This document shows positions 24,106 through 43,834 of a DNA stretch of 64,000 bases, piece by piece (position 1 is the first letter of the stretch; each line of letters opens with the position of its first letter). Made by a program: the position numbers and the translations under genes. This stretch comes from Candidatus Hydrogenedentota bacterium. Lineage in GTDB: Bacteria; Hydrogenedentota; Hydrogenedentia; Hydrogenedentales; CAITNO01. Location: NCBI GenBank assembly GCA_019455225.1, contig JACFMU010000010.1:975-64974 (forward strand), read 5' to 3'. Under the pieces are notes generated by a model. The model was given only the letters and a program-made list of their open reading frames with translations, was not told the DNA's origin and made no database searches.

Positions 24106-24216
24106 CGCTCTTGCGCGGCTCCTCTGGTTTGGGCCAATGCGCATAGCGTAGTGCATCAGGCGCGCCCGCGCAAAATTCAGGGATGGGAGGATGCACATTC
24201 GGGGACAGGCCTGCCT

Positions 24217-24276
24217 GGGAACGCCAATCTCCCGATTGGCCCGCCATAAGATGCCAATCAGGAGATTGGCGTTCCC
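24217..24276. repeat. REPIN-like inverted pair of the 24-27-bp REP unit (GGGAACGCCAATCTCCCGATTGGC ... GCCAATCAGGAGATTGGCGTTCCC)
   Basis: Two units in inverted orientation separated by 12 bp. Each unit contains a 7-bp stem hairpin, GCCAATC / GATTGGC. Confidence 0.9.
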
Positions 24277-24382
24277 GGGAGGTGCGCTCCCAGGCGGGCA
24301 CTCCGCGTTGAACGTCGCGTTCACAGGCCCTTATACTCCGGGGAGAGAGGGCTTTGGGCAATTTTACAGGAGGGCGTTTGCC

Positions 24383-26713
24383 ATGGCGGCATCATCCGGT
24401 TCCGCAGTTCCGCCGCACCGGTTCCGGTACCGCGCGCTTGTCGCGCTGGGTCTGGCGTTCGGCATGTTTGTGGCCTGGACCGGCCACCTGGCCCCGCCGC
24501 CGAAGCCCGCCTCGGCGGACGCGGCGCGGTTCTCCGCCGGACGGGCCATGGCCCATGTGCGGGAGATGGCCCGCGCGCCCCATCCGGCGGGCTCTCCGGA
24601 GAATGAACGGGTGCTGGGCTATATTGCGGAACAGCTCAGGGCGCTGGGCGCGGAGCCGCAACTCCAGGAGGTGATGGTGCACCGGGGGCCGGGCCAGGCG
24701 GCGACGGTGCGCAATTTGATGACGCGGCTGACCGGCACGGACAGCGGCGGGGCGGTGGTCCTGCTGGCGCATTATGACAGTGTGGCCTTCGGGCCGGGCG
24801 CGGCGGACGATGTGGCGGGCTGCGCGGCCCTGCTTGAAGCCTTGCGCGCGGTGAAGGCGGGGCCGCCGCCGAAGAACGACCTGATCTTCCTGTTCACCGA
24901 CGGCGAGGAGGGGCGCATCGCCGGGCATGCCGGGCTGCGCGGCGCCTACGGGTTCACCATGCACCACCCTTGGGCCAGGGAGGTGAAGGTGGCGGTGAAC
25001 TTCGACTGCCGGGGCAACCAGGGCCCGTCGTACATGTACGAGTGCAGCGCGCCGAACCGGTGGCTGGTGCGCCAGTTGAACCTTGCGGGCACGCGGCCCG
25101 TGGCCACCTCGGTGATGTTCGAGATTTACCGCCGGATGCCCCTGGCAAGCGACCTGACCGCATTCCTGGACGCGGGCATTCCGGGGATGAACTTCGCCTT
25201 CATCCACCGCCTGGCCCACTACCACACGGCGCTGGACACCCCGGAGAACCTGTCCCTGAAAAGCCTCCAGCACCACGGCGAGAACGCCCTCGGCATGGCG
25301 CGCCGGCTGGGAAATGTTGATTTGGACGGCGCGGGCGGGGGCGCGAACAGCGTCTATTTCTACCTGCCGCTGGCGGGCATGGTCCAGTACGGCCTGGTTT
25401 GGGTGTGGCCCCTGGCGGCGCTGGCGGCGGCACTCTACGCCGCCGTGGTCGTTGCGGGGTTGCGGCGCGGGCGCATGGACCCCGCAGGCATCGTGTACGG
25501 GCTGGGCCTCCACTTCACGGTGTGGCTGGTCTGCGCCCTCATCGGGCTGGCCATCTTCTGGCTCACGTACCAGAAGCGGGACTTCTATTTTGTGTACCCG
25601 TCCCTGGCGCTCACCGTCACGGCCCTGGCGGCCGCCGGGGGGCTCTTCTGCCTCGTCATGGGGCTGGCCCGGAAACGCCTCGGCCTGCTGAACCTCTGCG
25701 CGGCGGCCCTGCTCCCCTGGCTCTTCCTCCTCGCCGTAACCTCCTGGAAGGTGCCCGGCGCGAGCTACCTCTTCCTGATGCCGCTCCTCACCGCCGTGGC
25801 GGGGCTGTGGTGGATGGTGCTGCACCCGGAAGACCCCGAGCATCCCACCCTCTGGGGCGCGGCGATCCTCACCCTGCTGGGCATGCCCGCCCTGTTCTTC
25901 ATCACCGGCACGGCCCAGGGCCTCTACTCCGCCATACTCCTGCTGGGCGTGGCCGGACAGGTCAGCCTATTCCTGCTGCTGCTCGGCGCGGTGCTGCCGC
26001 AACTGGCCTGGATGGCCGGGGGGCACCTGCGCACCCTGTCCCTGGTCTTCCTCGCCGTCGGCGTCGCCGGGCTTTACGCCGCAGGCCCCCCCGACAAGTT
26101 CTCGCCGGAACGGCCCAGGCTCAACTCCCTCACCTACGCCCTGAACGCCGACACGGGCCAGGGCTTCTGGCTGAGCTGCGACGCGGCGCCGGACGAATGG
26201 ACCGCCCAAAAACTCGGCGACGCGCCCCGGCGCGAGGTCATCCACGACCTGCTGCCCCTGGCCACACGCGCGGACTACCTGCGCGCCGCCGCGCCGGAAT
26301 ACCCCCTCGTCCCGCCCTCCCTCGAGGTGCTCGGGGATGCCGTTGAAAACGGCGTCCGCACCCTGAAACTGCGCGTGGACTCGCCGCGCGGCGCGGAGGT
26401 GCTGGAGATGTGCGCCAACCCCGGACTGGAGGTGGTCGCGGCGCGCCTGAACGGCGCCCCCCTGCTGCCCGTCGAGGGCCGCTGGTTCCTGTGTTACAGC
26501 ATCTACCGGGGCGGCGGGCTGGAACTCGAACTCGATGTGGAGGAGGGCCGGACGGTCCAGCTTCAGTTGACCGATTTCAGTTATGGCCTGCCCGAAGAGG
26601 CCGGCGTCGCGCCCCGTCCCCCCCGCATGATCCCCAAGCCCAACACAGTGGACTTCAACCTCGACCCGCTGAAGACGGATGAGACCGTGGTGACCCGGAT
26701 GGTGAGGCTGTAG
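24383..26713 (+). CDS. M28-family Zn-aminopeptidase domain fused to polytopic membrane domain
   Basis: The motif VVLLAHYDSVAFGPGAADDVAG (metal-binding H/D) is typical of M28 peptidases. The C-terminal ~450 aa has at least 9 TM helices. AGGAGG RBS before ATG 24383. Confidence 0.7.
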   Translation: MAASSGSAVPPHRFRYRALVALGLAFGMFVAWTGHLAPPPKPASADAARFSAGRAMAHVREMARAPHPAGSPENERVLGYIAEQLRALGAEPQLQEVMVHRGPGQAATVRNLMTRLTGTDSGGAVVLLAHYDSVAFGPGAADDVAGCAALLEALRAVKAGPPPKNDLIFLFTDGEEGRIAGHAGLRGAYGFTMHHPWAREVKVAVNFDCRGNQGPSYMYECSAPNRWLVRQLNLAGTRPVATSVMFEIYRRMPLASDLTAFLDAGIPGMNFAFIHRLAHYHTALDTPENLSLKSLQHHGENALGMARRLGNVDLDGAGGGANSVYFYLPLAGMVQYGLVWVWPLAALAAALYAAVVVAGLRRGRMDPAGIVYGLGLHFTVWLVCALIGLAIFWLTYQKRDFYFVYPSLALTVTALAAAGGLFCLVMGLARKRLGLLNLCAAALLPWLFLLAVTSWKVPGASYLFLMPLLTAVAGLWWMVLHPEDPEHPTLWGAAILTLLGMPALFFITGTAQGLYSAILLLGVAGQVSLFLLLLGAVLPQLAWMAGGHLRTLSLVFLAVGVAGLYAAGPPDKFSPERPRLNSLTYALNADTGQGFWLSCDAAPDEWTAQKLGDAPRREVIHDLLPLATRADYLRAAAPEYPLVPPSLEVLGDAVENGVRTLKLRVDSPRGAEVLEMCANPGLEVVAARLNGAPLLPVEGRWFLCYSIYRGGGLELELDVEEGRTVQLQLTDFSYGLPEEAGVAPRPPRMIPKPNTVDFNLDPLKTDETVVTRMVRL

Positions 26714-26872
26714 GGCGCAACACCGCAATTCCACGCCTTTACACTGGGACACGAAGGCCATGGCAACTTCTGTTCAGCATAATTTCCATTACACCGGTAG
26801 ATGATGTTACAGTTTGGGGGAAACGTGTGACCAGGCCCCAAACGGCGCAAACGCCAGAACAAGGAGCATGCC

Positions 26873-27916
26873 ATGAAACGCGGAAACGGCTTTACTCTCA
26901 TTGAACTGCTGGTGGTCATTGCCATTATCGGGATTCTTGCGGCCATCCTGCTGCCGGCGCTGGCCCGCGCGCGCGAGGCGGCGCGGCGCTCCAGTTGCCA
27001 GAACAACCTCAAGCAGTGGGGCCTGGTGCTGAAAATGTACGGCAGCGAGGCCAGGGGCGCCTTCCCCCCGATTCAGGCGGTGCGCGACCGGCGTCCCTTT
27101 GGCGGCGCCGTGGAGCTTGGGCTTGCGGCGGGACCCGCGGTCAACACCATCTATCCCGAATACCTTGCGGACCCCAACATTGTCCTGTGCCCCTCGGACC
27201 CGGGCCTGAGCACCCACCGGCAGGACCTGTATTTCCAGCCCGGCAACCCGGAGAACCAGCGGCCGGACACGCCCCGGTTCGCCTATGAGCCGACCCTCAT
27301 CTCCGCCAGCTACATGTATCTGGGGTATGCCTTCGACAACATCGTCCCCGCGGAGCGGTCGAACGCCTTCCTCATCACGCAGGTGTTCACGGCGCTGGGC
27401 GCCACGTTCACCGGCAACCCCTGGATGCCCATCCAGATGGCCGGCGCCCTGGACGGACTGGTGGACCAGGCCGGCGGAATTGGCGCAATCGCCGGACTGG
27501 CCGGCAACCCCTTCGCCCTGGCCGCCGCGCTCGACCGGGACGCGGACATCAGCCGCGGCGGCCGTCCGGGATACGGCAACGGCGGCGGCAACACGGTATA
27601 CCGCCTGCGCGAGGGCATCGAGCGGTTCCTCATCACGGACATCAACAATCCCGGCGCGTCGAATGTGGCGCAGAGTTCCCTGTTCATCATGATGGACACC
27701 ATCTCCTCCGGCACGACCGAGGCCCTGTTCAACCACATCCCCGGCGGCTGCAATGTGCTGTACATGGACGGCCATGTTGAGTTTCTGCGCTACGTCCCGG
27801 TTCCCGGCCTGGAAGGCGCCGGCTCCTCCGCCGAGGCGACCCAGCGTCTGCGCGGCGGGAACTCCCCCGTGCTCGCGACAGTGGCCACGGTGGTCGCCGG
27901 CATCATGGGCGGATGA
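26873..27916 (+). CDS. Prepilin-type N-terminal cleavage/methylation domain + DUF1559 (H-X9-DG) protein
   Basis: N-terminus [31 protein letters not shown]-terminal [11 protein letters not shown] motif. This family is massively expanded in Planctomycetota and Verrucomicrobiota. Confidence 0.85.
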
Positions 27917-27944
27917 TAACCGCCTTTCGTCACGGATAGCGCAT

Positions 27945-28037
27945 AACTGGGAACGCCCTTCCTGGGAACGCCCTTTCTGGGAACGCCAATCTCCCGATTG
28001 GCTGTTTTAAGATGCCAATCAGGAGATTGGCGTTCCC
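27945..28037. repeat. REP cluster: two degenerate partial units followed by a full inverted REP pair
   Basis: ctgggaacgccctt, cctgggaacgcccttt, then a full forward unit at 27978, an 11-bp spacer and a reverse unit at 28014. Confidence 0.9.
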
Positions 28038-28134
28038 AGAAGAGTGCCGTTCCTAGGAGAGTGCTGTCCCTCTGGCAATGTCGCCGCCGGGGAGGGTATC
28101 ATGGTTGCCGGCAAAACAAGGGGATCCGGAATCC

Positions 28135-29868
28135 ATGTTTGAGCAAGTCTTCAAGAACGTTGACGATGTCCTGTGGAAAGAGGCCGGCTGCACCACGGAG
28201 CTGGACTACACCGAGCAGTCGTCGTGGCTACTTTTCCTGAAATACTTGGACGAACTGGAGCAGGACCGGGCAATGGAGGCGGAACTGGAGGGGCGGGCGT
28301 ATTCGTTCATACTCGACAGTCCGTACCGCTGGGAAAGCTGGGCCGCGCCCAAGGGTCCGGACGGGAAGGTTGACCACAACAGGGCGCTCACGGGCGACGA
28401 CCTGCGCGACTTCGTGAACCTGAAACTCTTCCCCTACCTGCACGGGTTCAAGCAGAAGGCCAGCGGGCCGAACACCATCGAGTACAAGATTGGCGAGATT
28501 TTCGGCGAGCTCAAGAACCGGATTCAGAGCGGCTACAACCTGCGCGAGATCATTGACCACATAGACGAACTGCGCTTCCGCTCGCAGACCGAGAAGCACG
28601 AGCTGTCGCACCTCTACGAGGCGAAGATCAGGAACATGGGCAACGCCGGGCGCAACGGCGGCGAGTACTACACCCCGCGCCCGCTCATCCGCGCCATTGT
28701 CCGGGTGGTGAAACCCAAAATCGGGGAAACCATCTACGATGGGGCCTGCGGCTCCGCGGGCTTCCTGTGCGAGGCTTTCGAGTATCTCAAAAACCCCGGG
28801 AACGACAATCCTGGGAACTACAATCTCCCGATTGGCTCGTCAAAATCTGCCAATCAGGAGATTGGCGTTCCCGGGGAAAGAGCCAATCAGGAGATTGGCG
28901 TTCCCAGGAGAAGCGCTACCGGGCTGAGCGTAAAAGACCTGCAAACGCTCCAGGAACGGACCTTCTACGGCAAGGAGAAGAAGAGCCTCGCCTACGTCAT
29001 CGCCATCATGAACATGATCCTCCACGGCATTGACGCGCCGAACATCCTCCACACGAACACGCTCACGGAGAACCTGGCCGACGTGCAGGAGAAGGACCGT
29101 TTCGACGTGATCCTCGCCAATCCGCCCTTTGGTGCCAAGGAGCGCAGGGAGGTCCAGCAGAACTTCCCCATCCGCACCGGCGATACCGCCTACCTCTTCC
29201 TACAGCACTTCATCAAGATGCTCCGGGCCGGGGGCCGCGCGGGCGTGGTCATCAAGAACACCTTCCTGTCCAACACGGACAACGCCTCCGTCAGCCTGCG
29301 CAGGCTGCTCCTCGAAAGCTGCAACCTGCACACCGTCCTCGACTGCCCCGGCGGCACCTTCTTGGGGGCGGGCGTGAAGACCGTCGTCCTCTTTTTCGAG
29401 AAGGGCGCGCCCACCCGGAAAATCTGGTACTACCAGCTCGACCCCGGACGCAGCCTCGGCAAGACCAACCCCCTCAACGACGACGACCTCGCCGAGTTCG
29501 TCGAACTGCAAAAGACCTGCGCCAACTCCCCCAAAAGCTGGACGGTGGACGCCGCGACCATAGACAAGACGACCTTTGACCTTTCCGTGAAGAACCCCAA
29601 CGGCGGCGAGGAGGTCATCCACCGCAGCCCGCTGGACATCTTGGACGAAATCGCCGCGCTGGACGCCGAAAGCGCCGAAGTGCTGGAAAACATCCGGGTG
29701 TTGCTCACCACCGACTCCGAAAACACCCCCTATGGGAACGCCTCCCCTGGGAACGCCAATCTCCCGATTGGCTCTTCTTCCTCCTCCACCCCTGAAAACG
29801 CCCATCACCCGGTTGGCGAACTGGGGGATGCCAATCGGGAGATTGGCGTTCCCAGGAGGGGAAAATGA
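28135..29868 (+). CDS. hsdM: Type I restriction-modification methyltransferase HsdM (N6-adenine), carrying in-frame REP insertions
   Basis: HsdM_N region (SWLLFLKYLDELE), motif I (YDGACGSAGFL) and motif IV (NPPFG). Repeat-derived peptides NPGNYNLPIGSSKSANQEIGVPGERANQEIGVP sit between motif I and the YGKE block. A second REP pair at the C-terminus precedes the stop. The stop overlaps the hsdS ATG (ATGA). Confidence 0.9.
   Translation: MFEQVFKNVDDVLWKEAGCTTELDYTEQSSWLLFLKYLDELEQDRAMEAELEGRAYSFILDSPYRWESWAAPKGPDGKVDHNRALTGDDLRDFVNLKLFPYLHGFKQKASGPNTIEYKIGEIFGELKNRIQSGYNLREIIDHIDELRFRSQTEKHELSHLYEAKIRNMGNAGRNGGEYYTPRPLIRAIVRVVKPKIGETIYDGACGSAGFLCEAFEYLKNPGNDNPGNYNLPIGSSKSANQEIGVPGERANQEIGVPRRSATGLSVKDLQTLQERTFYGKEKKSLAYVIAIMNMILHGIDAPNILHTNTLTENLADVQEKDRFDVILANPPFGAKERREVQQNFPIRTGDTAYLFLQHFIKMLRAGGRAGVVIKNTFLSNTDNASVSLRRLLLESCNLHTVLDCPGGTFLGAGVKTVVLFFEKGAPTRKIWYYQLDPGRSLGKTNPLNDDDLAEFVELQKTCANSPKSWTVDAATIDKTTFDLSVKNPNGGEEVIHRSPLDILDEIAALDAESAEVLENIRVLLTTDSENTPYGNASPGNANLPIGSSSSSTPENAHHPVGELGDANREIGVPRRGK
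28813..28905. repeat. Three REP units (1 forward, 2 reverse) inside hsdM coding sequence, frame preserved
   Basis: Variant forward unit CTGGGAACTACAATCTCCCGATTGGC, spacer TCGTCAAAATCT, then two GCCAATCAGGAGATTGGCGTTCCC units. Confidence 0.85.
29731..29853. repeat. REP pair (forward + exact reverse-complement unit) at 3' end of hsdM. The reverse unit abuts the hsdS RBS (gcgttcccAGGAGGGGAAAATG).
   Basis: Partial unit tatgggaacgcctcc, a full forward unit at 29747, a 57-bp spacer, and a reverse unit GCCAATCGGGAGATTGGCGTTCCC at 29830. Confidence 0.85.
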
Positions 29869-31007
29869 AAAAGGGGTGGGAGATTAAGACACTGGGCGAA
29901 GTGTGTGAAATCCTGGACCATAAGCGAAAGCCTGTTACCAAGCGGCACCGTGTTAGCGGTCAATACCCATACTATGGTGCAACCGGCATTCAGGATTATG
30001 TGGCCGACTATCTTTTTGATGAGCCACTTGTGTTGGTAGGTGAAGATGGCGCGAAGTGGGGGTCGGGTGAGTGTACGGCTTTTGCGGTAGAAGGAAAATG
30101 CTGGGTCAATAACCATGCTCATGTACTTCGACCATTTCGTGACATCGTCCTTGACAACTGGTTAATTCATTACCTAAATCATTCTGACTTGTCTGAGTAC
30201 GTGTCAGGCTTAACAGTTCCCAAGTTAAATCAAGGTAATCTTCGAGATATCCTCATCCCCCTCCCGCCCCTTGCCGAACAGCGGCGGATCGTGGGCATCC
30301 TCGACGAGGCGTTTGCGGGCATCGCCACCGCCAAGGCCAACGCCGAAAAGAACCTCCAAAACGCCCGCGCCCTCTTTGAAAGCCACCTGAACGCCGTCTT
30401 CACGCAGAAGGGCGAGGGATGGGTGGAGAGGAGGCTGGGGGATGTGTCAGAGGAGTTTGGGCGTGGCAAATCCAAGCATCGCCCACGAAATGATCCAAAG
30501 CTCTACGGCGGAAAATATCCATTTATTCAAACAGGTGATGTGCGTAACTGTGACCACAGAATTACAGCCTACACCCAAACGTACAATGCGATGGGGCTTG
30601 CCCAAAGCAAGTTATGGCCGAAAGGAACTCTCTGTATCACAATTGCAGCCAACATCGCGGAGACTGGTATTCTCGACTTTGACGCCTGTTTTCCCGACAG
30701 TGTCATTGGTGTCGTGGCGGATGAGAAGTCGACGAGCAATAAGTTTTTGGAATACCTTCTCCGAAGCTTCAAGACTCGGTTGCAAGCTCAGGGGAAAGGA
30801 AGCGCCCAAGACAACATCAACCTTGCCACTTTCGAAAATCAAGTTTTCCCATTTCCCGGAAGGCGGGTTCAAGACCAACTCGTCATTGAGCTCGACTCGT
30901 TACGAAAAGACACCCGCCGCCTCGAATCCGTCTACCAGCGCAAGGTTGCCGCACTGGAGGTGTTGAAGAAGTCGCTGCTGCATGAAGCGTTCACGGGGGC
31001 CTTATGA
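29865..31007 (+). CDS. hsdS: Type I R-M specificity subunit HsdS with two target-recognition domains of visibly lower G+C
   Basis: GWEIKTLGEVCEILD start. The central conserved helix is LPPLAEQRRIVGILDEAF...LFESHLNAVF and the C-terminal helix is ...LESVYQRKVAALEVLKKSLLHEAF. Both TRD-encoding segments are AT-richer than their surroundings. Confidence 0.85.
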   Translation: MKKGWEIKTLGEVCEILDHKRKPVTKRHRVSGQYPYYGATGIQDYVADYLFDEPLVLVGEDGAKWGSGECTAFAVEGKCWVNNHAHVLRPFRDIVLDNWLIHYLNHSDLSEYVSGLTVPKLNQGNLRDILIPLPPLAEQRRIVGILDEAFAGIATAKANAEKNLQNARALFESHLNAVFTQKGEGWVERRLGDVSEEFGRGKSKHRPRNDPKLYGGKYPFIQTGDVRNCDHRITAYTQTYNAMGLAQSKLWPKGTLCITIAANIAETGILDFDACFPDSVIGVVADEKSTSNKFLEYLLRSFKTRLQAQGKGSAQDNINLATFENQVFPFPGRRVQDQLVIELDSLRKDTRRLESVYQRKVAALEVLKKSLLHEAFTGAL

Positions 31008-32053
31008 CGCAGGAAAACACCGCTCCTGGGAACGCCAATCTCCCGATTGGCTCTTCAAAATCTGATGCTTCGACCCGGAGGGAAGAGGCCAATCGGGAGA
31101 TTGGCGTTCCCCGGAGGGAAGAGGCCAATCGGGAGATTGGCGTTCCCAGGGGGGAAGAGGCCAATCGGGAGATTGGCGTTCCCAGGGGGGAAGAGGCCAA
31201 TCAGGAGATTGGCGTTCCCAGGGGTGGCGTTCCAAGGGAGGAGGATGACGGAGAGGGCCGGTGGCGCAGCCGGGGTTATTTGCCGCATTTTGATAAGGCG
31301 GAGCGCGCGCAGCATGTGACGTTCCATTTGTCGGACAGTCTGCCGTGGCATGTCCTGAAACGGATGGAGGAGGAGGTCCGCGGATTGCCTGAGGATAAAC
31401 GGGATGTGGAACGGCGCAGGAAAGTGGAAAACTGGCTGGACGCGGGACATGGCTCGTGTGTGCTGCGTGTGCCGGAGGTCGCCCGGAAGGTGCAGGAGTC
31501 GCTGCTCTTTTTCGACGGACAGCGGTACCGCCTCATCGCGTGGGTGGTCATGCCAAACCATGTGCACACGCTTTTTGAACCGCTGCCCGGCTGGTCACTG
31601 AACAAGATTGTCGCGTCGTGGAAGAAGTTCACCGCGCGGATGATCCGCGATTATGAACGGGCGCATCCTGGGAACGGTCCTGGGAACGCGGATCCTGGGA
31701 ACGCCAATCTCCCGATTGGCATCTTCAATACGGCCAATCAGGAGATTGGCGTTCCCAGAGGAGAAGTTCCCGAGAAAATAAACGGGGTTTGGCATCGTGA
31801 GTTCTGGGACCGGTATGTCCGGGATGAACGGCATTTCGAGCGGGTGGTGGAATATATCCACGGGAATCCGGTGACGGCGGGGCTGGTGAAGGTGGCGGAG
31901 GATTGGCCGTGGGGGAGTGCGGGGGTGATTGGAAGGGCCAATCGGGAGATTGGCGTTCCCAAGGAGGAGGCTCCTCGGGGTGAGGGTGCCGGGGAAAGAG
32001 CCAATCAGGAGATTGGCGTTCCCAGGGAGGACGTTCCCAGGGAGGAGGAATAG
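31004..32053 (+). CDS. REP-associated tyrosine transposase (RAYT; IS200/Y1 HuH family). The core is about 31262-31934. The ORF is extended at both ends and interrupted internally by in-frame REP units.
   Basis: WRSRGYLPHFDKAERAQHVTFHLSDSLP is a RAYT N-terminal signature. The HuH motif is NHVHTLF. The C-terminal motif is EFWDRYVRDERHFERVVEYIHGNPVTAGLVKVAEDWPWGSA (Tyr motif plus NPV...DWPW). No IS ends are present. It is flanked by REPs, and its ATG overlaps the hsdS stop (ATGA). Confidence 0.75.
   Translation: MTQENTAPGNANLPIGSSKSDASTRREEANREIGVPRREEANREIGVPRGEEANREIGVPRGEEANQEIGVPRGGVPREEDDGEGRWRSRGYLPHFDKAERAQHVTFHLSDSLPWHVLKRMEEEVRGLPEDKRDVERRRKVENWLDAGHGSCVLRVPEVARKVQESLLFFDGQRYRLIAWVVMPNHVHTLFEPLPGWSLNKIVASWKKFTARMIRDYERAHPGNGPGNADPGNANLPIGIFNTANQEIGVPRGEVPEKINGVWHREFWDRYVRDERHFERVVEYIHGNPVTAGLVKVAEDWPWGSAGVIGRANREIGVPKEEAPRGEGAGERANQEIGVPREDVPREEE
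31025..31219. repeat. REP array: one forward unit then four reverse units arranged as a 36-bp-period tandem repeat (31088, 31124, 31160, 31196)
   Basis: (GGAAGAG)GCCAATCGGGAGATTGGCGTTCCC(AGGGGG) x4 encodes the peptide repeats EEANREIGVPRG. Confidence 0.9.
31677..31766. repeat. Two degenerate partial units plus a full REPIN (forward, 12-bp spacer, reverse) inside the RAYT core ORF
   Basis: cctgggaacggt, cctgggaacgcggat, then CCTGGGAACGCCAATCTCCCGATTGGC ATCTTCAATACG GCCAATCAGGAGATTGGCGTTCCC. Confidence 0.85.
31937..32023. repeat. Two reverse-orientation REP units at 3' end of RAYT ORF
   Basis: GCCAATCGGGAGATTGGCGTTCCC at 31937 and GCCAATCAGGAGATTGGCGTTCCC at 32000. Confidence 0.85.
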
Positions 32054-32172
32054 GGGGTTCTGTCTCACTGGTGAGGCATTCCGGGGCTTTTGTCTCTTTT
32101 TTGCGGTATTTTGAGACGCAAATGGAATATGATTGAGTCTTTGGGGTGGATAATTCGCCCCATGGAGCGGTT

Positions 32173-34662
32173 ATGAATGAAGCCGAAACGAGAGCCGAGC
32201 ACATTGATCCCGCGCTGAAGGCGGCGGGATGGGGTGTGGTGGAGGGCAGCCGCATTCTCCGGGAGCACCGGATCGCGCCGGGACGGCTGCAGGGGGGCGG
32301 GAAACGGCACAAGCCGGAGATCGCGGACTATGTGCTGGTGTACCGCAACCTGAAGCTGGCGGTGGTGGAGGCAAAGCCCTGGGGCGCGCCGTACACGGAG
32401 GGGGTGGCCCAGGCCAAGGAGTACGCGAAAAAACTGGCCGTCCGCTTCACCTATTCGACCAACGGGCAGAAGATTTACGGGATTGACATGGAAACGGGCA
32501 AGGAGGGGGATGTCGCCGACTATCCCGGCCCGGAGGCGCTGTGGACGCTGACCTTTGCGGAGCAGAACGAGTGGCGGGACCGCTTTGCCAAGGTGCCCTA
32601 TGAGGACAAGGGCGGCAGCCACTGCACGCGCTATTATCAGGACATCGCCATCCAGAACGTGATGGAGGCGATTGCGGGCGGGGAGGAGCGGATTCTGCTG
32701 ACGCTGGCCACGGGCACCGGAAAGACCTTCATCGCGTTCCAGATCGCGTGGAAGCTCTTCCACAGCCGCTGGACCCTGAACCGGGACGCCCAGCGGCGCC
32801 CGCGCATCCTCTTCCTGGCGGACCGCAACATTCTGGCGGACCAGGCGTACAACGCCTTTTCCGCGTTCCCGGAGGATGCGATGGTGCGGATTGCCCCGGA
32901 GGACATCCGCAAGAAGGGGAAGGTGCCCAAGAACGGGAGTATCTTCTTCACCATCTTCCAGACTTTCATGTGCGAAAATGGCAACACGACCTCTGGAAAC
33001 GCACTGCCCGGGAACGCCAATCTCCCGATTGGCTCTTCCTCCCCTGGGAACGCCAATCTCCCGATTGGCTCTTCAAAGTCTGCCAATCAGGAGATTGGCG
33101 TTCCCAGGGAGGACATTCCCAGGGAGGACGGCCCCGCGTATTACTTCGGCGGGTACCCGCAGGATTTCTTTGACCTGATCATCATTGACGAGTGCCACCG
33201 GGGCGGCGCGAACGATGAAAGCAGTTGGCGGGGCATCATGGAGTATTTTTCGCCCGCCGTGCAGTTGGGGCTGACCGCCACGCCGAAGCGGAAGGAGAAC
33301 GCGGACACCTACAAGTATTTTGGCGAGCCGGTGTTCGTGTATTCCCTGAAGGACGGCATCAACGACGGCTACCTCACGCCGTTCAAGGTGAGGCAGATAT
33401 CCACCACGCTGGACGAGTATGTGTACACCCCGGACGATGTGCTGGTCGAGGGCGAGGTCGAACAGGGGAAGCGGTACACGGAGAAGGACTTCAACAAGAT
33501 CATCGAGATAAAGGAGCGCGAGGCGTACCGGGTGGGGCTGTTCATGGAGATGATTGACCAGCGGGAAAAGACGCTGGTGTTCTGCGCCACACAATTGCAC
33601 GCGCTGGCCGTGCGCGACCTGGTCAACCAGATGAAGTCCGCCAAGGACCCGGACTACTGCCACCGGGTGACCGCTGACGACGGGAAGCTGGGCGACCAAT
33701 GGCTGCGCGACTTTCAGGACAACGAGAAGAGCGTTCCGACCATCCTGACCACCTCGCAGAAACTCTCCACCGGGGTGGACGCGCGCAATGTGCGCAACAT
33801 CGTGCTGATGCGCCCCGTCAACTCGATGATCGAGTTCAAGCAGATCATCGGGCGCGGCACCCGGCTCTATGACGGCAAGGACTACTTCACCATATACGAC
33901 TTCGTGAAGGCGCACCACCATTTCAGCGACCCGGAGTGGGACGGGGAACCTGCGGAACCGACGGGGCCGACAATAACGCGCGTGAAAGAGGACCCGCCGG
34001 AACCGCCGTACCCCGGCCCGGAGCCCCCGGAACCGCGCAAGGAGAAAATTCGGATTAAACTGGCCGACGGGAAGGAGCGCGCCATCCAGCACATGGCGGC
34101 GACCACTTTCTGGAGCCCGGACGGCACGCCGATGTCCGCCGCCCAGTTCCTCGAAAGCCTCTTCGGTGCGCTGCCGGACTTCTTTAAAAACGAGGACGAG
34201 TTGCGGGCCATATGGAGCGTTCCGGACACACGGAAGGCGTTTCTCCAAGGGTTGGCCGACAGGGGCTTTGGCCCGGAGCCGATGGCGGAGATGCAGCGGA
34301 TAATTGACGCCGAAAAGAGCGACCTCTTCGACGTGCTGGCCTATGTGGCGTTTGCCATGCCGACCGTCACCCGCGCGGAGCGCGCCGCCGCCGCCAGGAC
34401 CCGCCTGCATGGGCGCTTCACCGCGAAGCAGGAGGCCTTCCTCGACTTTGTGCTGTCCCATTATGTGCGCCAGGGCGTGGAGGAACTGGACCAGGAGAAA
34501 CTGGCCCCGTTGATCAGGCTCCGCTACAACAACGCCGTGGCCGACGCTGTCGCCGACCTGGGCAAACCCCATGAAATCAGGCGGATTTTTACCGGGTTCC
34601 AGAAGTACCTCTACCAGCCCGCCCATGGCGGCACACATCGGTACGGTTTCGCCTCCGCCTGA
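32173..34662 (+). CDS. hsdR: Type I restriction enzyme R subunit HsdR (helicase/nuclease) with in-frame REP insertion
   Basis: N-terminal nuclease region (AETRAEHIDPALKAAGW...YVLVYRNLKLAVVEAK). Helicase motif I is LATGTGKTF and DEAH-type motif II is IIIDECHRG. The repeat-derived peptide ALPGNANLPIGSSSPGNANLPIGSSKSANQEIGVP lies between motifs Ia and II. Confidence 0.85.
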   Translation: MNEAETRAEHIDPALKAAGWGVVEGSRILREHRIAPGRLQGGGKRHKPEIADYVLVYRNLKLAVVEAKPWGAPYTEGVAQAKEYAKKLAVRFTYSTNGQKIYGIDMETGKEGDVADYPGPEALWTLTFAEQNEWRDRFAKVPYEDKGGSHCTRYYQDIAIQNVMEAIAGGEERILLTLATGTGKTFIAFQIAWKLFHSRWTLNRDAQRRPRILFLADRNILADQAYNAFSAFPEDAMVRIAPEDIRKKGKVPKNGSIFFTIFQTFMCENGNTTSGNALPGNANLPIGSSSPGNANLPIGSSKSANQEIGVPREDIPREDGPAYYFGGYPQDFFDLIIIDECHRGGANDESSWRGIMEYFSPAVQLGLTATPKRKENADTYKYFGEPVFVYSLKDGINDGYLTPFKVRQISTTLDEYVYTPDDVLVEGEVEQGKRYTEKDFNKIIEIKEREAYRVGLFMEMIDQREKTLVFCATQLHALAVRDLVNQMKSAKDPDYCHRVTADDGKLGDQWLRDFQDNEKSVPTILTTSQKLSTGVDARNVRNIVLMRPVNSMIEFKQIIGRGTRLYDGKDYFTIYDFVKAHHHFSDPEWDGEPAEPTGPTITRVKEDPPEPPYPGPEPPEPRKEKIRIKLADGKERAIQHMAATTFWSPDGTPMSAAQFLESLFGALPDFFKNEDELRAIWSVPDTRKAFLQGLADRGFGPEPMAEMQRIIDAEKSDLFDVLAYVAFAMPTVTRAERAAAARTRLHGRFTAKQEAFLDFVLSHYVRQGVEELDQEKLAPLIRLRYNNAVADAVADLGKPHEIRRIFTGFQKYLYQPAHGGTHRYGFASA
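32994..33105. repeat. REP units inside hsdR (two forward, one reverse, plus a partial)
   Basis: Forward units at 33008 and 33043, spacer TCTTCAAAGTCT, reverse unit at 33082. Confidence 0.85.
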
Positions 34663-34780
34663 GCATCCCGCCTTTCCGTTGACTTTTTCGCGTTGTTGCG
34701 GTACTGTTCCGTTGTGTCCGGCGGTGGATGGCCGGGGACGGAAAGCAGCGCGCACGGCGACCAACTCACGGGAGGCCCGC

Positions 34781-36196
34781 ATGACCACAGGGGAAAACCG
34801 CACGCAGGGGGGGGCGCGCATGACCCGCCAGGACAAGGCGCGCATCTTCGCCCTGTTCGGACGCCACATCAACAAGAACCAGATCAAGTACCTGAGCGCG
34901 GGGCATCTGGACGTGTTCGAGTCCCGGCGCGAGGGGGTGGGCTTCACGGACCCCGTGTCGGGCCGGCAGATGTATGACTGCTTCACGGCGGCGGGCTGTT
35001 TCAATGTGTCGCGGCGGAACCCTGAGGTGGTGGCGGCGCTGGAAGCGGCGGCGGACGAGCTGGACATGGGCAGCCGCCTGCTGTCCTCGCCGGAACGGGA
35101 GGAGCTGGCGCGGCGGCTGGCGGCGCTGGCGCCGGAGGGGCTGGACCGGGTGCTCTTCGCGGCGGGCGGGGGCGAGGCGGTGGACTGCGCCCTGAAACTG
35201 GCGCGGGGCGCGACGGGCCGCGGCGGGATTGTCTCCACCGTGAAGGCCTACCACGGCCACACGGGCTTCGCCCTGAGCGCGAACGGCAAGGAGCATTACC
35301 GGCACTGTTTCGAGCCGCTGATGCCGGGCTTCTCGTTTGTCCCCTTCAACGATTTGGGCGCGATGACGGCGGCGGTGTCAAAGGACACTGCGGCGGTCAT
35401 CATCGAGCCGGTGCAGGGCGAGGCGGGCATCTTCCCCGCCACCGCAGAATACCTGCGGGGTCTGCGCGCGCTCTGCGACCGGCACGGCGCGCTGCTCATT
35501 TTCGACGAGATACAGACGGGCTTCGGGCGCACGGGGCGCGTGTTCGCCTCGGAGCATTCGGGGGTGGTCCCGGACCTGATGACGGTGGCCAAGTCCCTGG
35601 GCGGGGGACTCTGCGCGAACGCCGCGCTGCTCTACCGGGACACGCCCAGGCTGCGCGGCTTTGTGGAGGCGCACCCGGATTTCCATGAGACGTATGCGGG
35701 CGGCGGGGGCATCGCGTGCCGGGTCTCGCTGAAGGTGCTGGACTATCTGGAGAAGCACCGGCTCTGGGAGAACGCGGCGCGGCAGGGCGCGCGGCTGAAG
35801 GAGACCCTGGAGGGGCTGAAGCGCGAGAATCCCGGCATCATCCTCCATGTGCGGGGCCTGGGCCTGATGGTGGGGCTGGAGTACACCCACGAGTTCATGG
35901 GCCCCATGATGTCCGACGCGCTGGCAAAACGCGGGGTCTTCGCCGCCTACTCGGGGAACGCGCCGCAGGTGATGCGGTTCATGGTCCCCATCACGGTGTC
36001 GGACGCGGAGCTGGACGAGATTACCGCGGCAATTCGCGGGGCCGTGAAGGACATGAAGACCCTGCTGCCGCTCGCCCTGCTGGCGGCCAAAATTCCCGGG
36101 GTGCTGCGGCTGCTGAACAACGAGAAGATTCAGACAACCCTCTTCACCTATGTCAGAAAACTGGAAGCGCTGCTGCCGCGCGGCGGGGGGAACTGA
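34781..36196 (+). CDS. Class-III (PLP) aminotransferase
   Basis: Ornithine/acetylornithine/GABA-aminotransferase-like motifs: LIFDEIQTGFGRTG and TVAKSLGGG (PLP lysine). GGAGG RBS before ATG 34781. Confidence 0.8.
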   Translation: MTTGENRTQGGARMTRQDKARIFALFGRHINKNQIKYLSAGHLDVFESRREGVGFTDPVSGRQMYDCFTAAGCFNVSRRNPEVVAALEAAADELDMGSRLLSSPEREELARRLAALAPEGLDRVLFAAGGGEAVDCALKLARGATGRGGIVSTVKAYHGHTGFALSANGKEHYRHCFEPLMPGFSFVPFNDLGAMTAAVSKDTAAVIIEPVQGEAGIFPATAEYLRGLRALCDRHGALLIFDEIQTGFGRTGRVFASEHSGVVPDLMTVAKSLGGGLCANAALLYRDTPRLRGFVEAHPDFHETYAGGGGIACRVSLKVLDYLEKHRLWENAARQGARLKETLEGLKRENPGIILHVRGLGLMVGLEYTHEFMGPMMSDALAKRGVFAAYSGNAPQVMRFMVPITVSDAELDEITAAIRGAVKDMKTLLPLALLAAKIPGVLRLLNNEKIQTTLFTYVRKLEALLPRGGGN

Positions 36197-36200
36197 GGCC

Positions 36201-37355
36201 ATGGCAATGATTCTGGAGGGAAAACGGCAGGGCGCCCATTTCTTTGACACGGAGGGGCGGCGCTATCTGGACGCGGACAGTTCGGCGGGCATTTTCAACC
36301 TGGGCCGGAGACATCCGGAACTGGCGGCCGCGCTGAAAGCCGCCGTCCGCGAAACGGACCAGGGCAATTTCCCCATCATCAGCGAGGAGAAGGCCCTGCT
36401 CGCCGCCGCGCTGGCGGACTTCGTGCCCGGCCCGCTGGAGTGCAGCCTTTTCGGCGTGACGCGGGGCGAGGCCTTTGACGCGGCCTGCAAGGTGGCGCGG
36501 GGCCTCACGAAACGCCCGGGCCTCCTCGCCCTTGAGGGCGGCTGGCACGGCCACACGGGCTTCGCCATGAGCCTGTCCCGGCGGGAAGACCGGGACCTTT
36601 ACGGACCGCTGATGCCCGGCGCGGGCTTTCTACCCTTCGGCGACCTGGCGGCGGCGGAGCGCGCCGTGGGTCCGGACACGGCGGCGGTGTTCCTGGAGCC
36701 GGTGCAGGCGGAGAACGGCTGCCGGGCCGTGGACGCGGCCTACGCCAAGGGGCTGGCGGAGCTCTGCCGCGCGCGGGGCGCGCTGCTGGTCCTCGACGAG
36801 ACGCAGACGAATTTCGGGCGGACGGGGGCGCCGTTCTGCTTTGAACGGCTCGGCGCGGCGCCGGACATGCTCATTCTGGGCGAGGCCCTCGGCGGCGGCA
36901 TCTTCCCGATTACGGTGACCATGATGACCCCGCGGGTGAACCAGTTCATGAACGACCACCCGCTCATCCACCTGTCCACCTTCGGCGGCTCGGATGTGGG
37001 CTGCCGCGTGGCCCTGGCCGCGCTGGAACTGTACCGCCGCCTGGAGCCCTGGAAGAACGCCGCCGTCATGGGCGCGCGCCTGCGCGCGGCATGCGACGGG
37101 CTGGCGGGCCAATTTCCGTCCCTCCTGCAGGGGGTGGACGGCGCCGGACTGCTGCTGTCGCTGAAAACGGCCTCGCCCGAGGCCGCGCGGGCGCTCTGCG
37201 CCGCCTGCCTCGACGCGGGGCTTTTGGCGGCGCCGGGCAGGGTGGCGGCGGACACGGTGGTGCTGCGTCCCAGCCTGCTGCTCACGGAAGCGGAGACGGA
37301 TGAACTGGCGGCGGCGCTGGAGACGGCGCTGCGCGCGCTGGCGGCGGGCGCGTGA
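36201..37355 (+). CDS. Class-III (PLP) aminotransferase, paralogue
   Basis: LVLDETQTNFGRTG...LGEALGGG and the same fold. It overlaps its neighbours' stop and start codons. Confidence 0.8.
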   Translation: MAMILEGKRQGAHFFDTEGRRYLDADSSAGIFNLGRRHPELAAALKAAVRETDQGNFPIISEEKALLAAALADFVPGPLECSLFGVTRGEAFDAACKVARGLTKRPGLLALEGGWHGHTGFAMSLSRREDRDLYGPLMPGAGFLPFGDLAAAERAVGPDTAAVFLEPVQAENGCRAVDAAYAKGLAELCRARGALLVLDETQTNFGRTGAPFCFERLGAAPDMLILGEALGGGIFPITVTMMTPRVNQFMNDHPLIHLSTFGGSDVGCRVALAALELYRRLEPWKNAAVMGARLRAACDGLAGQFPSLLQGVDGAGLLLSLKTASPEAARALCAACLDAGLLAAPGRVAADTVVLRPSLLLTEAETDELAAALETALRALAAGA

Positions 37356-38557
37356 AGGCGCTGTACTTCGAGAACGACCCGCCGCGCTACGCGCTCTACC
37401 GCGCGGCGCGGATGGTCCACCCCTTTCCGAGGCTCGGCCCGCTGTCCCCGGTGCGGTATGCCGAAGTGCCGGAGCCGTCGCCGCCCAACGGCCGCTGGCT
37501 TCTGGTGCGGAACACGGCCTGCGGCCTCTGCGGCACGGACATCCATTTCCTGCTGATGGACATGTCGCCGAAGAGCTACTCGGCGGCCCTGCCGGGGATC
37601 AAGCGCAAGTACCTGGGCCATGAGGCCGCGGGCGTGGTGGAGGCGGCGGGCGCGGAGGCGGACGGGTTCCAGCCGGGCGACCGGGTGGCCCTGCGGCTGG
37701 ACTGGCCCTCGTGCGCGCAAATGGAGATCAGCCCGCCCTGCGGCCCGTGCGCGGCGGGCAGTTACATGCTCTGCGAGAATCTGGGTGCCGCCCCCATGCC
37801 GGAGGCCGTGGGCGGCGGCTTCTCCCCCCGCATGGCGGTGCACCGCAGCCAGCCCTTCAAAATCCCCGGCAGCGTGGGCGATGACGCGGCGGTGCTGCTG
37901 GAGCCCATGGCCTGCGCGGTCCACGGCGTGCTGAAGGCGGCGGACCGTCTGGCGCCGGGCGCGCGGGTGCTGGTCATCGGCGGCGGCACCATCGGTCTGC
38001 TGGCGGCGGCGGCGTGCCGCGCCCTGGCCCCCGGCGTGGAGGTGTTCCTGTCGGCGCGGTACCCGTTCCAGGCGCGGGCGGCGGAGGCCCTGGGCGCGCG
38101 GGTGCTGGACGGCGGCGGAAAACTCTTTTCCCAGTCCGCCGCCGCCACGGGCGGGCGGCACGCGCGCGGCCTTTTCGGCAACGAGATCGTGCTGGGCGGC
38201 TTTGACGCGGTGCTGGACAGCGTCGGCGGCGGGGAGAGTTTCGGGCAGGCCCTGCGCCTGGCCCGCGCGGGCGGCATGGTCGTCCTGCTGGGCATCAACT
38301 TCGCCCCCGCAAGCCTGGACTACTCGCCCGTGTGGGCCCGCGAGGTGCTGGTGACGGGCATCAACTGCCACGGCACCGAGCGCGACGGGCGCAGCTCCTT
38401 TGCGGTGGCGGCGGAGCTGCTGGCGGGCCTGCCGGAACTCCCCGGCCTGCTCATCACGCACCGCTTCCCCATGCGGGAATACCGGAAGGCCGTCCGGGCT
38501 TTCATGGACAAAGGCAAATCCGGGGCGATAAAGATTGTGCTGGATCACGGGGAGTAA
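37352..38557 (+). CDS. Zn-dependent medium-chain dehydrogenase/reductase (ADH/sorbitol-threonine-DH-like)
   Basis: CGLCGTDIHF catalytic Zn motif, structural Zn cysteines (C..C..C...C), GHEAAGVV, and an Rossmann fold VLVIGGGTIGL. Confidence 0.8.
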   Translation: MKALYFENDPPRYALYRAARMVHPFPRLGPLSPVRYAEVPEPSPPNGRWLLVRNTACGLCGTDIHFLLMDMSPKSYSAALPGIKRKYLGHEAAGVVEAAGAEADGFQPGDRVALRLDWPSCAQMEISPPCGPCAAGSYMLCENLGAAPMPEAVGGGFSPRMAVHRSQPFKIPGSVGDDAAVLLEPMACAVHGVLKAADRLAPGARVLVIGGGTIGLLAAAACRALAPGVEVFLSARYPFQARAAEALGARVLDGGGKLFSQSAAATGGRHARGLFGNEIVLGGFDAVLDSVGGGESFGQALRLARAGGMVVLLGINFAPASLDYSPVWAREVLVTGINCHGTERDGRSSFAVAAELLAGLPELPGLLITHRFPMREYRKAVRAFMDKGKSGAIKIVLDHGE

Positions 38558-38570
38558 GGGGGATGTCTTC

Positions 38571-38597
38571 CCTGGGAACGCCAATCTCCTGATTGGC
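38571..38597. repeat. REP unit, TCCT-loop variant (CCTGGGAACGCCAATCTCCTGATTGGC)
   Basis: Direct match to the repeat family, 13 bp after the dehydrogenase stop. Confidence 0.85.
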
Positions 38598-38621
38598 ATC
38601 CATGAAACAGGAACATCCCCC

Positions 38622-38697
38622 GGCGCTAAAGCGCCACCCCCTTCGGAAGGGGGAATTTGTGGGCGCTTGAACTTTTTGGTTGCTGTTTTTTTTGCTG
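38622..38697 (+). terminator. Putative intrinsic terminator: two tandem GC hairpins followed by a T-rich tract
   Basis: GGCGCTAAAGCGCC and CCCCCTTCGGAAGGGGG followed by ...CTTTTTGGTTGCTGTTTTTTTTGC. This is the only strongly AT-rich segment in the region. Confidence 0.6.
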
Positions 38698-38723
38698 TAA
38701 TGGGTGTCACACTGGAAAGAAGA

Positions 38724-38791
38724 GCCAATCAGGAGATTGGCGTTCCCAGGAAGCCGCAATGGGAAGAGCCTATCAGGAGATTGGCGTTCCC
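38724..38791. repeat. Two reverse-orientation REP units (the second has a gcCTatc variant)
   Basis: GCCAATCAGGAGATTGGCGTTCCC at 38724 and CCTATCAGGAGATTGGCGTTCCC at 38768. Confidence 0.85.
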
Positions 38792-42970: not shown

Positions 42971-43834
42971 TTATACGGGTTGGAACAGGGTCGCAGGCGA
43001 GATTTTTCGTTCCAGATTATTCAGGATTATGTCCAGATCAATCTTTGCCTTGGCCTGAAGACCCAGCGCGGTGGATATCCCGGCGCTGTCCGTGCTCATT
43101 CGTCCATCAAGACGGATGGCATAAGAGGCTCCTTTTCGCTCAAGACCGTAGGTGTGGAAATGCATGGCATCTCCTGCACGGGCCTGGTTGAGGTGCGAGA
43201 ATGAAAACTCCGTCTTCATGTAATCAAACAGGCAATCCTGAACAACCACAACAAGATGCCGTGAAAGATGCTCGAAAGTGTCAACCTTGTGGTGCAACTG
43301 CACAAGAATGGTTTTCGCGGTCATTTTCCAGTTCATGCCAAAAGGTTTGCGTGATTCTGTTGCAGCCGTGTCGCACGCAAATCCCATGTCCCGTAAAAAC
43401 CGTTCCCTGGCGGGCCACACTGTGCCCGTGGTGTCAAGCGTCTGAATCTCAATCCCCACGAAATCCACCGGTTTGTCGTTTCGCACCGAAACAAGGAAAT
43501 AATCAACACTGCCGCCCGGGACGGGGACCTCCGGCACCAGATGCAACTGATTGCCCGGCTCATGGCGCGTGAGGAGATGCAGGGAATCAACAAATATCTG
43601 CCGCCTTTCGAGAAACCGGTTCGGGCATATCAGAATGGGGCCGCACTCTTTTCCGTAACCCACGGAGCATGTTCCAATGGAGATGCCGGGCTGGCTCTTT
43701 CGGACCTTGTAACACCGCCTTTTTGTGAACGGGCATAACTGCCGCGAGATGATGTCTTCCCACGCTTTGCGTTTTGTGGAGCGCGTGTCATGGCCAAAGA
43801 GTTCCAAAATTGCGCTCATAGCAGTGTCCAACAC
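42971..43834 (-). CDS. Putative type II restriction endonuclease (partner of adjacent methyltransferase)
   Basis: No recognisable motif. The call rests on a 19-bp overlap with the MTase gene, shared lower G+C, and the typical R-M size. Confidence 0.4.
   Translation of the reverse strand: MLDTAMSAILELFGHDTRSTKRKAWEDIISRQLCPFTKRRCYKVRKSQPGISIGTCSVGYGKECGPILICPNRFLERRQIFVDSLHLLTRHEPGNQLHLVPEVPVPGGSVDYFLVSVRNDKPVDFVGIEIQTLDTTGTVWPARERFLRDMGFACDTAATESRKPFGMNWKMTAKTILVQLHHKVDTFEHLSRHLVVVVQDCLFDYMKTEFSFSHLNQARAGDAMHFHTYGLERKGASYAIRLDGRMSTDSAGISTALGLQAKAKIDLDIILNNLERKISPATLFQPV

Follow-up and report, generated by a model that had tools for sequence, protein, structure and literature searches.

The RAYT gene and its locus

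Within a 64 kb stretch of a Candidatus Hydrogenedentota genome (the window; it makes up the genome data for this organism, and coordinates count from its first base) there are 24 copies of a short hairpin repeat, distributed in and around a gene for a repetitive extragenic palindromic (REP)-associated tyrosine transposase (RAYT) that itself lies inside a type I restriction-modification (R-M) operon. We think it probable that a REP/RAYT system, a REPtron with doublets like those of REPINs (REP doublets forming hairpins), has colonised this hsdM-hsdS-RAYT-hsdR operon. A preliminary description of the region had recognised the hairpin cluster and its RAYT-like gene and had overlooked both the operon and the coupling of the RAYT gene to hsdS. 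It also took the host to be Planctomycetota-like; the genome is that of a Candidatus Hydrogenedentota, and exact copies of its alcohol dehydrogenase (ADH) and HAD hydrolase are named Candidatus Hydrogenedens sp. or Candidatus Hydrogenedentota bacterium. The features are as follows:

28078..29868, + strand: hsdM, type I methyltransferase (Pfam N6_Mtase, 200 bits, and HsdM_N; PADLOC MTase_I, 525 bits)
29865..31007, + strand: hsdS, specificity subunit (Pfam Methylase_S, 158 bits)
31004..32053, + strand: RAYT gene, 349 aa (NF047646, PF01797)
32146..34662, + strand: hsdR, EcoAI-family type I restriction subunit (NF046051, 794.7 bits, cut-off 550)
24184..24300, no strand: REPIN-like palindromic element, 117 bp, intergenic, upstream of the M28 peptidase gene
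27924..28062, no strand: intergenic REP complex, 139 bp, between the DUF1559 gene and hsdM
38574..38791, no strand: intergenic REP units between the Zn-ADH and HAD genes
24383-26713: M28 peptidase
26873-27916: DUF1559/prepilin-type protein
Downstream of hsdR: two class-III aminotransferases, a Zn-dependent ADH and a HAD hydrolase

The gene order hsdM-hsdS-RAYT-hsdR emerges from the listing of open reading frames (ORFs) together with Pfam and NCBIfam scans. HsdM retains the motifs DGACGSAGF and NPPF and HsdR retains ATGTGKT and DECH, so that HsdR, HsdM and HsdS, with intact motifs and in one operon, constitute an EcoAI-family type I system; the hsdM start may alternatively be the ATG at 28135. 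The hsdM stop and hsdS start overlap as ATGA, as do the hsdS stop and the RAYT start, and through this second overlap the RAYT gene is translationally coupled to hsdS. GC content over 28-34 kb is 0.56-0.61 vs approximately 0.67 in the flanks.

A hairpin repeat in ten clusters

The core GCCAATCNNNNGATTGGC is found 23 times in the window when one mismatch is allowed, every match lying within 24223-38785, and dinucleotide shuffles of the window give an expectation of 0.05 matches and a maximum of 1. Scanning both strands with the 24-mer GGGAACGCCAATCTCCCGATTGGC at up to four mismatches identifies the 24 units, which form ten clusters starting at 24217, 27979, 28813, 29749, 31028, 31697, 31937, 33010, 38574 and 38724, all within 24217-38791; the same scan finds no unit in the remaining ~49 kb. 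With an additional degenerate unit at 29791-29814 (five mismatches), these counts bear out the dense cluster of hairpin repeats reported previously. The unit has the layout GGGAAC-GCCAATC-NNNN-GATTGGC, in which the 7 bp stem and 4 nt loop are as first described; the stem may extend to 8 bp and is preceded by a conserved 5' foot, CCYGGGAAC. Short copies of the foot, CTGGGAACGCC, 12-15 nt long, also occur in tandem. Units are placed at both ends of the RAYT ORF.

Folded as single-stranded DNA, a single unit has an energy of -6.5 kcal/mol (z -3.0) and a doublet one of -33.2 kcal/mol (z -10.7). Seven forward-reverse (F->R) pairs are present in the window, each of them a long hairpin of about 60-130 nt, and this inverted doublet is the commonest arrangement. 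The 12 bp spacer that had been thought conserved, TC(T/G)TCAAA(A/G)TCT, holds for three clusters inside ORFs; the remaining spacers differ, and in other genomes they are variable.

The 117 bp element at 24184-24300 consists of units 24217-24240 (F) and 24253-24276 (R) with degenerate outer feet (-37.3 kcal/mol, z -6.1). The complex at 27924-28062 has two 15 nt feet followed by 27979-28002 (F) and 28014-28037 (R) and degenerate right-hand feet (-44.2 kcal/mol, z -10.5). The rightmost units are 38574-38597 (F, with a TCCT loop), 38724-38747 (R) and 38768-38791 (R, two mismatches), and all three are also present in a contig of an NCBI metagenome-assembled genome (MAG), L122. These seven units (24217-24276, 27979-28037 and 38574-38791) are intergenic. 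The other 17 are intragenic, in hsdM, the RAYT gene and hsdR, all of them in frame, so that in this window the elements are for the most part not extragenic.

Two other origins were considered and ruled out. The clusters are not a CRISPR-like array, in that the 'spacers' are 9-12 nt long and repeated and the units are single and in both orientations; nor are they a tandem-duplication or assembly artefact, in that units occupy orthologous sites in the independent assemblies L122, L125, L006 and L127. An Rfam scan of the whole window yields nothing at gathering score, and the generic miRNA-precursor hairpin models that match the doublets at relaxed thresholds were treated as chance.

The RAYT protein

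The ORF at 31004-32053 matches the NCBIfam model NF047646 (REP_Tyr_transpos) with 84.6 bits (cut-off 80) and Pfam PF01797 (Y1_Tnp) with 32 bits (cut-off 23); the IS200 equivalog NF033573 gives 24.2 bits, below its cut-off of 55. Residues H186-V-H188 align with the HMH of the Escherichia coli TnpA-REP structure PDB 4er8, and Y284 (in VEYIHGNP) aligns with its Y115 (VDYIYINP), so that the RAYT-like ORF inferred previously is real, together with its HUH and tyrosine positions. These positions are invariant in 71 homologues, as are 36 family columns altogether. An AlphaFold2 model built with 70 homologues predicts a folded core of about aa 96-228 and 257-312, with core blocks at predicted local distance difference test (pLDDT) values of 80-94; the REP-coded residues 2-95, 229-256 and 313-348 fall below 50. 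Foldseek returns 4er8_A as the best PDB match to the model (E 2.6e-5, probability 1.00, TM-score 0.62 normalised by target length), followed by the TnpA proteins of ISDra2 and IS608. From the profile matches and the modelled structure, we assign the ORF as a RAYT with a predicted HUH fold, and the original suggestion that REP-type hairpins are paired here with a cognate RAYT of the Y1/HUH kind is upheld by the family models and by the match to 4er8.

A search with the REP-free RAYT core (E <= 1e-10) identifies 3032 clusters of homologues, many of which carry the source annotation 'REP element-mobilizing transposase RayT'; the window protein belongs to this large clade, already annotated as RAYT. 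REP-coded peptides are present in 114 of the best 120 homologues, at the N-terminus in 108, at the C-terminus in 81 and between the HUH motif and the tyrosine in 34, and the family consensus of the RAYT N-terminus itself includes PGNANLPIG...EIGxP. Neither tnpB nor a second RAYT copy is found among the annotated ORFs, copies outside 18-46 kb not having been searched for systematically.

The exact RAYT protein has no match among recorded proteins. The ORF has no called-gene record, which may be explained by assemblers breaking at the REP repeats. A 1222 bp contig (L121, Logan SRR27370451) corresponding to window ~29832-31053 carries hsdS alone and has both of its ends inside REP units.

Insertions in a single reading frame

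All 17 of the units inside ORFs are in codon phase 0, such that forward units are read as GNANLPIG and reverse units as ANxEIGVP (frame A: PGNANLPIG / ANxEIGVPR). There are two sites in hsdM, an internal insertion at 28795-28926 (aa 240-283; units 28813 F, 28849 R and 28882 R) and a C-terminal tail at ~29731-29862 (units 29749 F, degenerate 29791 and 29830 R). HsdM aligns to PDB 5ybb and 3ufb in two blocks that skip aa 240-283, and the insertion site is a short connection in these homologues (residues 213-217 and 240-245 respectively). In hsdR the insertion is at 32974-33144 (aa 277-333; units 33010 F, 33046 F and 33082 R), and the alignment of HsdR with PDB 3h1t ends at aa 276 and resumes at aa 334, with 3h1t residues 287-295 in between. 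A scan with the 24-mer shows hsdS to be free of REP units. By alignment with the solved structures, the gene-internal units are thus insertions in loops or tails, and the genes that hold them are intact in other respects.

We also observe that, in the hsdM tail, the final unit has a foot reading GTTCCCAGGAGGGGAAAATGA (29845-29868); the repeat thereby encodes the C-terminus of HsdM and also places AGGAGG, which resembles a Shine-Dalgarno sequence, immediately before the ATG of hsdS.

The RAYT gene itself contains three groups. The N-terminal array at 31025-31249 has units 31028 (F) and 31088, 31124, 31160 and 31196 (R, spaced by 36 nt), and from 31088 to 31219 there is an exact 36 nt (12-codon) period encoding (E/R)EEANREIGVPR four times, twice in the sister strain discussed below. 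An insert at 31667-31777 (aa ~222-258; units 31697 F and 31733 R) separates the HUH strand from the W/Y helix by about 65 residues vs 24 in 4er8, and the C-terminal tail at 31937-32050 has units 31937 and 32000 (both R). No in-frame ATG, GTG or TTG is found between the ATG at 31004 and the conserved core, and therefore the 80-residue stretch with five units at the N-terminus is translated if the protein is made at all.

The same frame is used elsewhere. With REP-free queries and stop-to-stop ORFs, 29 of 29 units internal to hsdM and hsdR at other loci are in frame A, the off-frame matches being upstream ORF extensions that belong to a RAYT tail, or one split hsdM. Among the best 120 RAYT homologues, the two frame A peptides are found in 104 and 77, and peptides of the other two frames in 3, 3 and 2. 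All three sense frames of the doublet are free of stop codons. The frame A peptide has a grand average of hydropathy (GRAVY) of -0.75 and 74% polar or disorder-promoting residues, the frame B peptide is hydrophobic (GRAVY +0.31), and that of frame C contains three Trp and a Cys. From this difference we infer that selection on the encoded peptide accounts for the single frame, with a phase-specific targeting mechanism as a possible alternative cause.

Variation between sister strains

The contig L125 carries the same operon from a sister strain, with M28, DUF1559, HsdR and aminotransferase proteins 96-98% identical to those of the window. It lacks 24184-24300, and excision of these 117 bp restores colinearity, with 85 of 88 positions identical across the empty site CCGGGA|CTCCGC, which has no neighbouring REP copy and no obvious target duplication. 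A clean empty site for the 117 bp element is consistent with mobility. The 139 bp REP complex at 27924-28062 is replaced in the sister strain by 1.8 kb (L125 5168-7005) with three ORFs (88 aa, DUF2089 and 288 aa). Arrays within genes differ as well: the RAYT N-terminal array is F-R-R in L125 vs F-R-R-R-R in the window, the RAYT C-terminal array is R vs R-R, and the hsdM C-terminal array is F-F-R vs F-(degenerate F)-R.

These differences raise the question of whether REP insertions have disabled the RAYT and left it an inactive relic, the repeats now spreading and persisting only through replication slippage, gene conversion and recombination between copies. The copy number differences between the strains are of whole 33-36 nt units within existing arrays, as this would predict; the insertion sites in hsdR and hsdM are common to diverged lineages, and the RAYT carries about 150 REP-coded residues of pLDDT below 50. 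We nevertheless regard a relic as very improbable. The RAYT ORF is intact and keeps the HUH motif, the tyrosine and the 36 invariant family columns; the in-frame insert between HUH and Tyr recurs in 34 of the 120 homologues and is placed away from the active site by published work; and the 117 bp element is a discrete gain or loss with no neighbouring copy.

The first target recognition domain (TRD1) of hsdS (~29911-30256) has no nucleotide-level match in L125, against 90-93% identity in the flanks and 66% over HsdS as a whole; judging by this alignment, the specificity domain looks to have been swapped.

The same repeat in other genomes

Scanned for exact matches, a set with one genome for each GTDB species gave at least 120 stretches, for which phylum labels are those of the MAG records. 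Among the matches listed, Acidobacteriota are the majority, and other labels are Hydrogenedentota, Victivallales, Planctomycetota, Verrucomicrobiota (Chthoniobacteraceae and Opitutales), Nitrospirales, Cytophagia, Armatimonadota, Sumerlaeota/BRC1, Desulfobacteraceae, Binataceae and Dormibacterota; the identical 24-mer is therefore present, among these matches, in genomes labelled as more than ten phyla. Several of the stretches are on contigs of 0.4-5 Mb. The consensus in other genomes is CCYGGGAACGCCAATCTCCYGATTGGCG, the unit ends are GGGAAC...GTTCCC and the spacers vary. The matches listed are mostly intergenic and are arranged as 92 singles and 44 F->R doublets, the latter mostly 36 nt from start to start; F->R pairs number 45, and there are no R->F doublets among the matches. 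A RAYT gene is present in 4 of the at least 120 listed stretches, which fits REPs that are dispersed. This dispersal in many other genomes is an indirect answer to the earlier concern that the repeat might be a local artefact.

Compensatory changes affecting both sides of the stem are of five kinds, including GCCATTC/GAATGGC, GCCACTC/GAGTGGC, GCCAGTC/GACTGGC and GCCGATC/GATCGGC, and they show that the hairpin is under selection. RAYT cores in these phyla are about 50-65% identical to that of the window. Across 80 metagenome loci, 14 of the 15 whose RAYT core is at least 60% identical carry this REP type vs 8 of 48 below 55%, and this tracking of REP presence with RAYT similarity supports cognate REP-RAYT pairing, even though the 24-mer itself does not vary across the phyla listed above.

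These data also bear on whether the repeat is primarily a protein-coding module, in which the peptide PGNANLPIG/ANxEIGVPR is selected and the DNA palindromy is secondary. The use of one frame only by gene-internal units and the occurrence of PGNANLPIG...EIGxP in the family consensus of the RAYT N-terminus are in keeping with such a module. We find it scarcely credible, in that 7 of the 24 window units are intergenic, both orientations are found, changes on the two sides of the stem compensate each other in the DNA, disorder is predicted for the peptide and an intergenic copy is polymorphic between strains. Furthermore, only 7 of the ~136 clusters listed from other genomes are in a coding-like long ORF context, by a crude GC3-based (third codon position GC) test that is only indicative: of the three calls that it places off frame, at least one, in L006, is an ORF read in the wrong frame.

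Two candidate vectors for the repeat were rejected. Phages are represented by 7 stretches only among 2.9 million viral contigs, and the best RAYT relatives in the plasmid database PLSDB are 26-34% identical, these phyla being poorly represented in PLSDB.

Recurrent linkage to type I R-M genes

The order hsdS-RAYT-hsdR is also present in the Victivallaceae contigs L127 and L128, and RAYT is followed by hsdR in the Victivallales MAG L006; the ORF at ~500-1600 of L006, between RAYT and hsdR, is one that we take to be rhuM-like. In the right-hand REP arm of L006 the compensatory stem variant GCCACTC/GAGTGGC is seen. In total, hsdS is directly upstream of the RAYT gene at 17 loci, including the window and L125, and at 15 of these the RAYT gene begins between -14 and +25 nt relative to the hsdS stop. 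One of the hsdS-linked loci (L203) has a RAYT 47% identical to that of the window and lacks consensus REPs. Among metagenome loci with at least 600 nt upstream, hsdS is directly upstream in 11 of 56. On a simple neighbour-joining tree, 14 of 18 R-M-linked RAYTs have an R-M-linked nearest neighbour, a figure matched in 0 of 1000 permutations; these linkage statistics are drawn from short contigs.

Insertion sites are shared as well. HsdR homologues 57-96% identical (L006, L125, L127/128 and L136) have REP units at a similar place (about aa 275-357, in stop-to-stop ORFs). On an Acidobacteriota chromosome (OY970275.1; L082 5758-7760) there is an hsdM pseudogene 74-78% identical to that of the window, with an internal stop and with REPs in frame at two positions, of which one is the FEYLK site used in the window; it is truncated and adjoins an ORF for a DDE-type transposase. 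A second R-M system in the window, at 42971-45000 on the minus strand, pairs a NotI-like endonuclease (PF12183) with an N4/N6 DNA methylase (PF01555); it occupies a patch of GC 0.60-0.62 located 8 kb from the type I system and has no REP units.

These associations could mean that the RAYT and REPs are a functional, co-evolving part of the R-M cassette rather than its parasite, the RAYT for instance processing REP hairpins within hsd genes or their transcripts and so tuning or varying restriction, or that the cassette is their vehicle between phyla. The recurrent gene order with its narrow spacing (L203 included), the upstream hsdS genes in metagenomes, the clustering on the tree, the low GC of the cassette relative to its flanks, the Acidobacteriota pseudogene with a REP at the same site and the REP-free NotI-like system nearby would all fit. 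We consider it decidedly unlikely all the same. Most RAYTs of the clade and almost all REP copies elsewhere are not beside hsd genes, and no PADLOC defence-system model matches the RAYT. The array changes are in frame and so cannot switch genes on and off, and a single ancient insertion into a horizontally mobile, non-essential operon could account for the linkage. A related and somewhat less doubtful proposal, still unlikely, is that hsdM-hsdS-RAYT-hsdR is a coherent, horizontally mobile cassette, with the RAYT and REPs as either functional accessories or hitch-hikers; if true, this would explain one REP identical over 24 nt across more than ten phyla.

Relationship to known systems

REPs with GTAG and CGTC tags have been described in eight phyla, including the Planctomycetes-Verrucomicrobia-Chlamydiae (PVC) group, and in-frame intragenic REPs are most numerous in Opitutus terrae and Rickettsia (Di Nocera et al. 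2013, PMC3733652). The novelty by phylum that was first suggested therefore falls away, REPs in the PVC superphylum and within genes having been published already (PMC3733652; also PMC6006769). In Opitutus and Rickettsia, as here, the palindromes occur as singles, dimers and groups, in frame; they add about 20-80 residues, often in genes of DNA metabolism (PMC3733652). The Di Nocera families differ in their GTAG/CGTC tags and in being, for the most part, confined to one species or lineage, and in the passages of PMC3733652 consulted we found no report of R-M targets, a single-frame rule or sequence identity across phyla.

The closest described relatives may be the TnpA-REPs of subclass 2.4, equivalent to Bertels group 4, with the motifs NH[IFV]H, WQ and YIxNNP (Quentin et al. 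2018, PMC6006769). Common to both are a Y1 nuclease with HUH and Tyr flanked by cognate hairpins, double-foot REPs, bounded by the foot on one side and by its reverse complement on the other, and a REP in frame within tnpA-REP between HuH and Y (here aa ~222-258, between H188 and Y284). The foot is different (GGGAAC/GTTCCC here, GT[AG]G/C[TC]AC there), and of the motifs NHVH fits whereas W-H and YIHGNP (family consensus YIHxNP) stand in place of WQ and YIxNNP. Here, moreover, the gene is inside a type I R-M operon and its neighbours are decorated too.

Escherichia coli TnpA-REP bound to its REP hairpin (4er8) is the best match to the window RAYT in both sequence and fold, with ~14% identity over the fold alignment; the window protein differs in its roughly 150 extra REP-coded residues and in an extra helical region (aa ~115-170). 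The IS200/IS605 elements IS608 and ISDra2 share the fold family, a presumed chemistry on single-stranded hairpins and insertion beside a short target, but here it is short hairpins that are amplified, not the gene. The R-M genes resemble EcoAI and other type IB systems, HsdR passing the EcoAI/FtnUII equivalog and hsdM, hsdS and hsdR forming one operon, and they depart from these in having the RAYT gene between hsdS and hsdR and REP-coded loops in HsdM and HsdR.

The kind of element, REPs within genes and in-frame insertion of a REP in its own transposase gene are thus already known. The identical 24-mer across >10 phyla, the linkage of RAYT to hsdS and the single frame within genes appear to be undescribed in the literature searched, which also yielded no link of RAYTs with type I restriction systems and no REPs in Hydrogenedentes.

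A model for REP spread

The observations made here (the repeat family with its covarying hairpin, the family membership and fold of the RAYT, the insertions in a single frame and the polymorphism between relatives) can be accommodated in a model that borrows its mechanism from E. coli TnpA-REP and the IS200/IS605 elements IS608 and ISDra2, for which it is established. In this model the HUH/Tyr nuclease would recognise the hairpin and foot on single-stranded DNA, and would cut and rejoin at a short target to relocate elements, the sole empty site seen being GGGA^CTCC. Arrays would later lengthen or shorten in steps of 33-36 nt through slippage or recombination. Copies within genes would survive a selective filter when their length is a multiple of three and they lie in surface loops or tails, and survivors would be read in frame A as a polar, Gly/Pro/Asn-rich peptide, the corresponding RAYT segments being predicted to be disordered. 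REP cleavage by this RAYT, the position of the cut and the filter on gene-internal copies are accordingly putative steps of the model.

Several points weigh against colonisation by an active REP/RAYT system. The single case of presence and absence could be a deletion rather than an insertion, and the nuclease activity of this RAYT clade is a prediction from its relatives. None of the 24 units lies further than 14.6 kb from the RAYT gene. With GGGAAC (reverse complement GTTCCC) as its foot, the repeat has neither GTAG nor CGTC, the tags of the REP superfamilies described so far, beside its stem. Lastly, insertion sites in diverged hsdR and hsdM genes are common to lineages, so that many copies within ORFs are inherited and not recent; there are consequently ~7 independent observations of frame, not 17 or more, and the chance of one frame at about seven independent sites is about (1/3)^6.

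Implications

At a practical level, repeats of this kind break short-read assemblies, inflate ORF calls and create spurious 'PGNANLPIG/ANREIGVP' similarity among unrelated proteins of metagenome databases. The in-frame copies that persist in diverged orthologues amount to a natural data set on the tolerance of proteins to insertion, and one that includes helicase/nuclease and methyltransferase cores.

RAYTs are considered to be inherited mainly vertically in the short term, with horizontal transfer possible in the long term (Bertels et al. 2017, PMC5581495), and REPIN-RAYT systems are at present portrayed as partners that hosts pass on vertically and that are specific to a lineage. A 24 nt core that is identical across Acidobacteriota, Hydrogenedentota, Planctomycetota, Verrucomicrobiota and Armatimonadota would be a counter-example to this description. 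A RAYT found repeatedly within a defence operon would likewise be one, and would offer a concrete route for horizontal spread.

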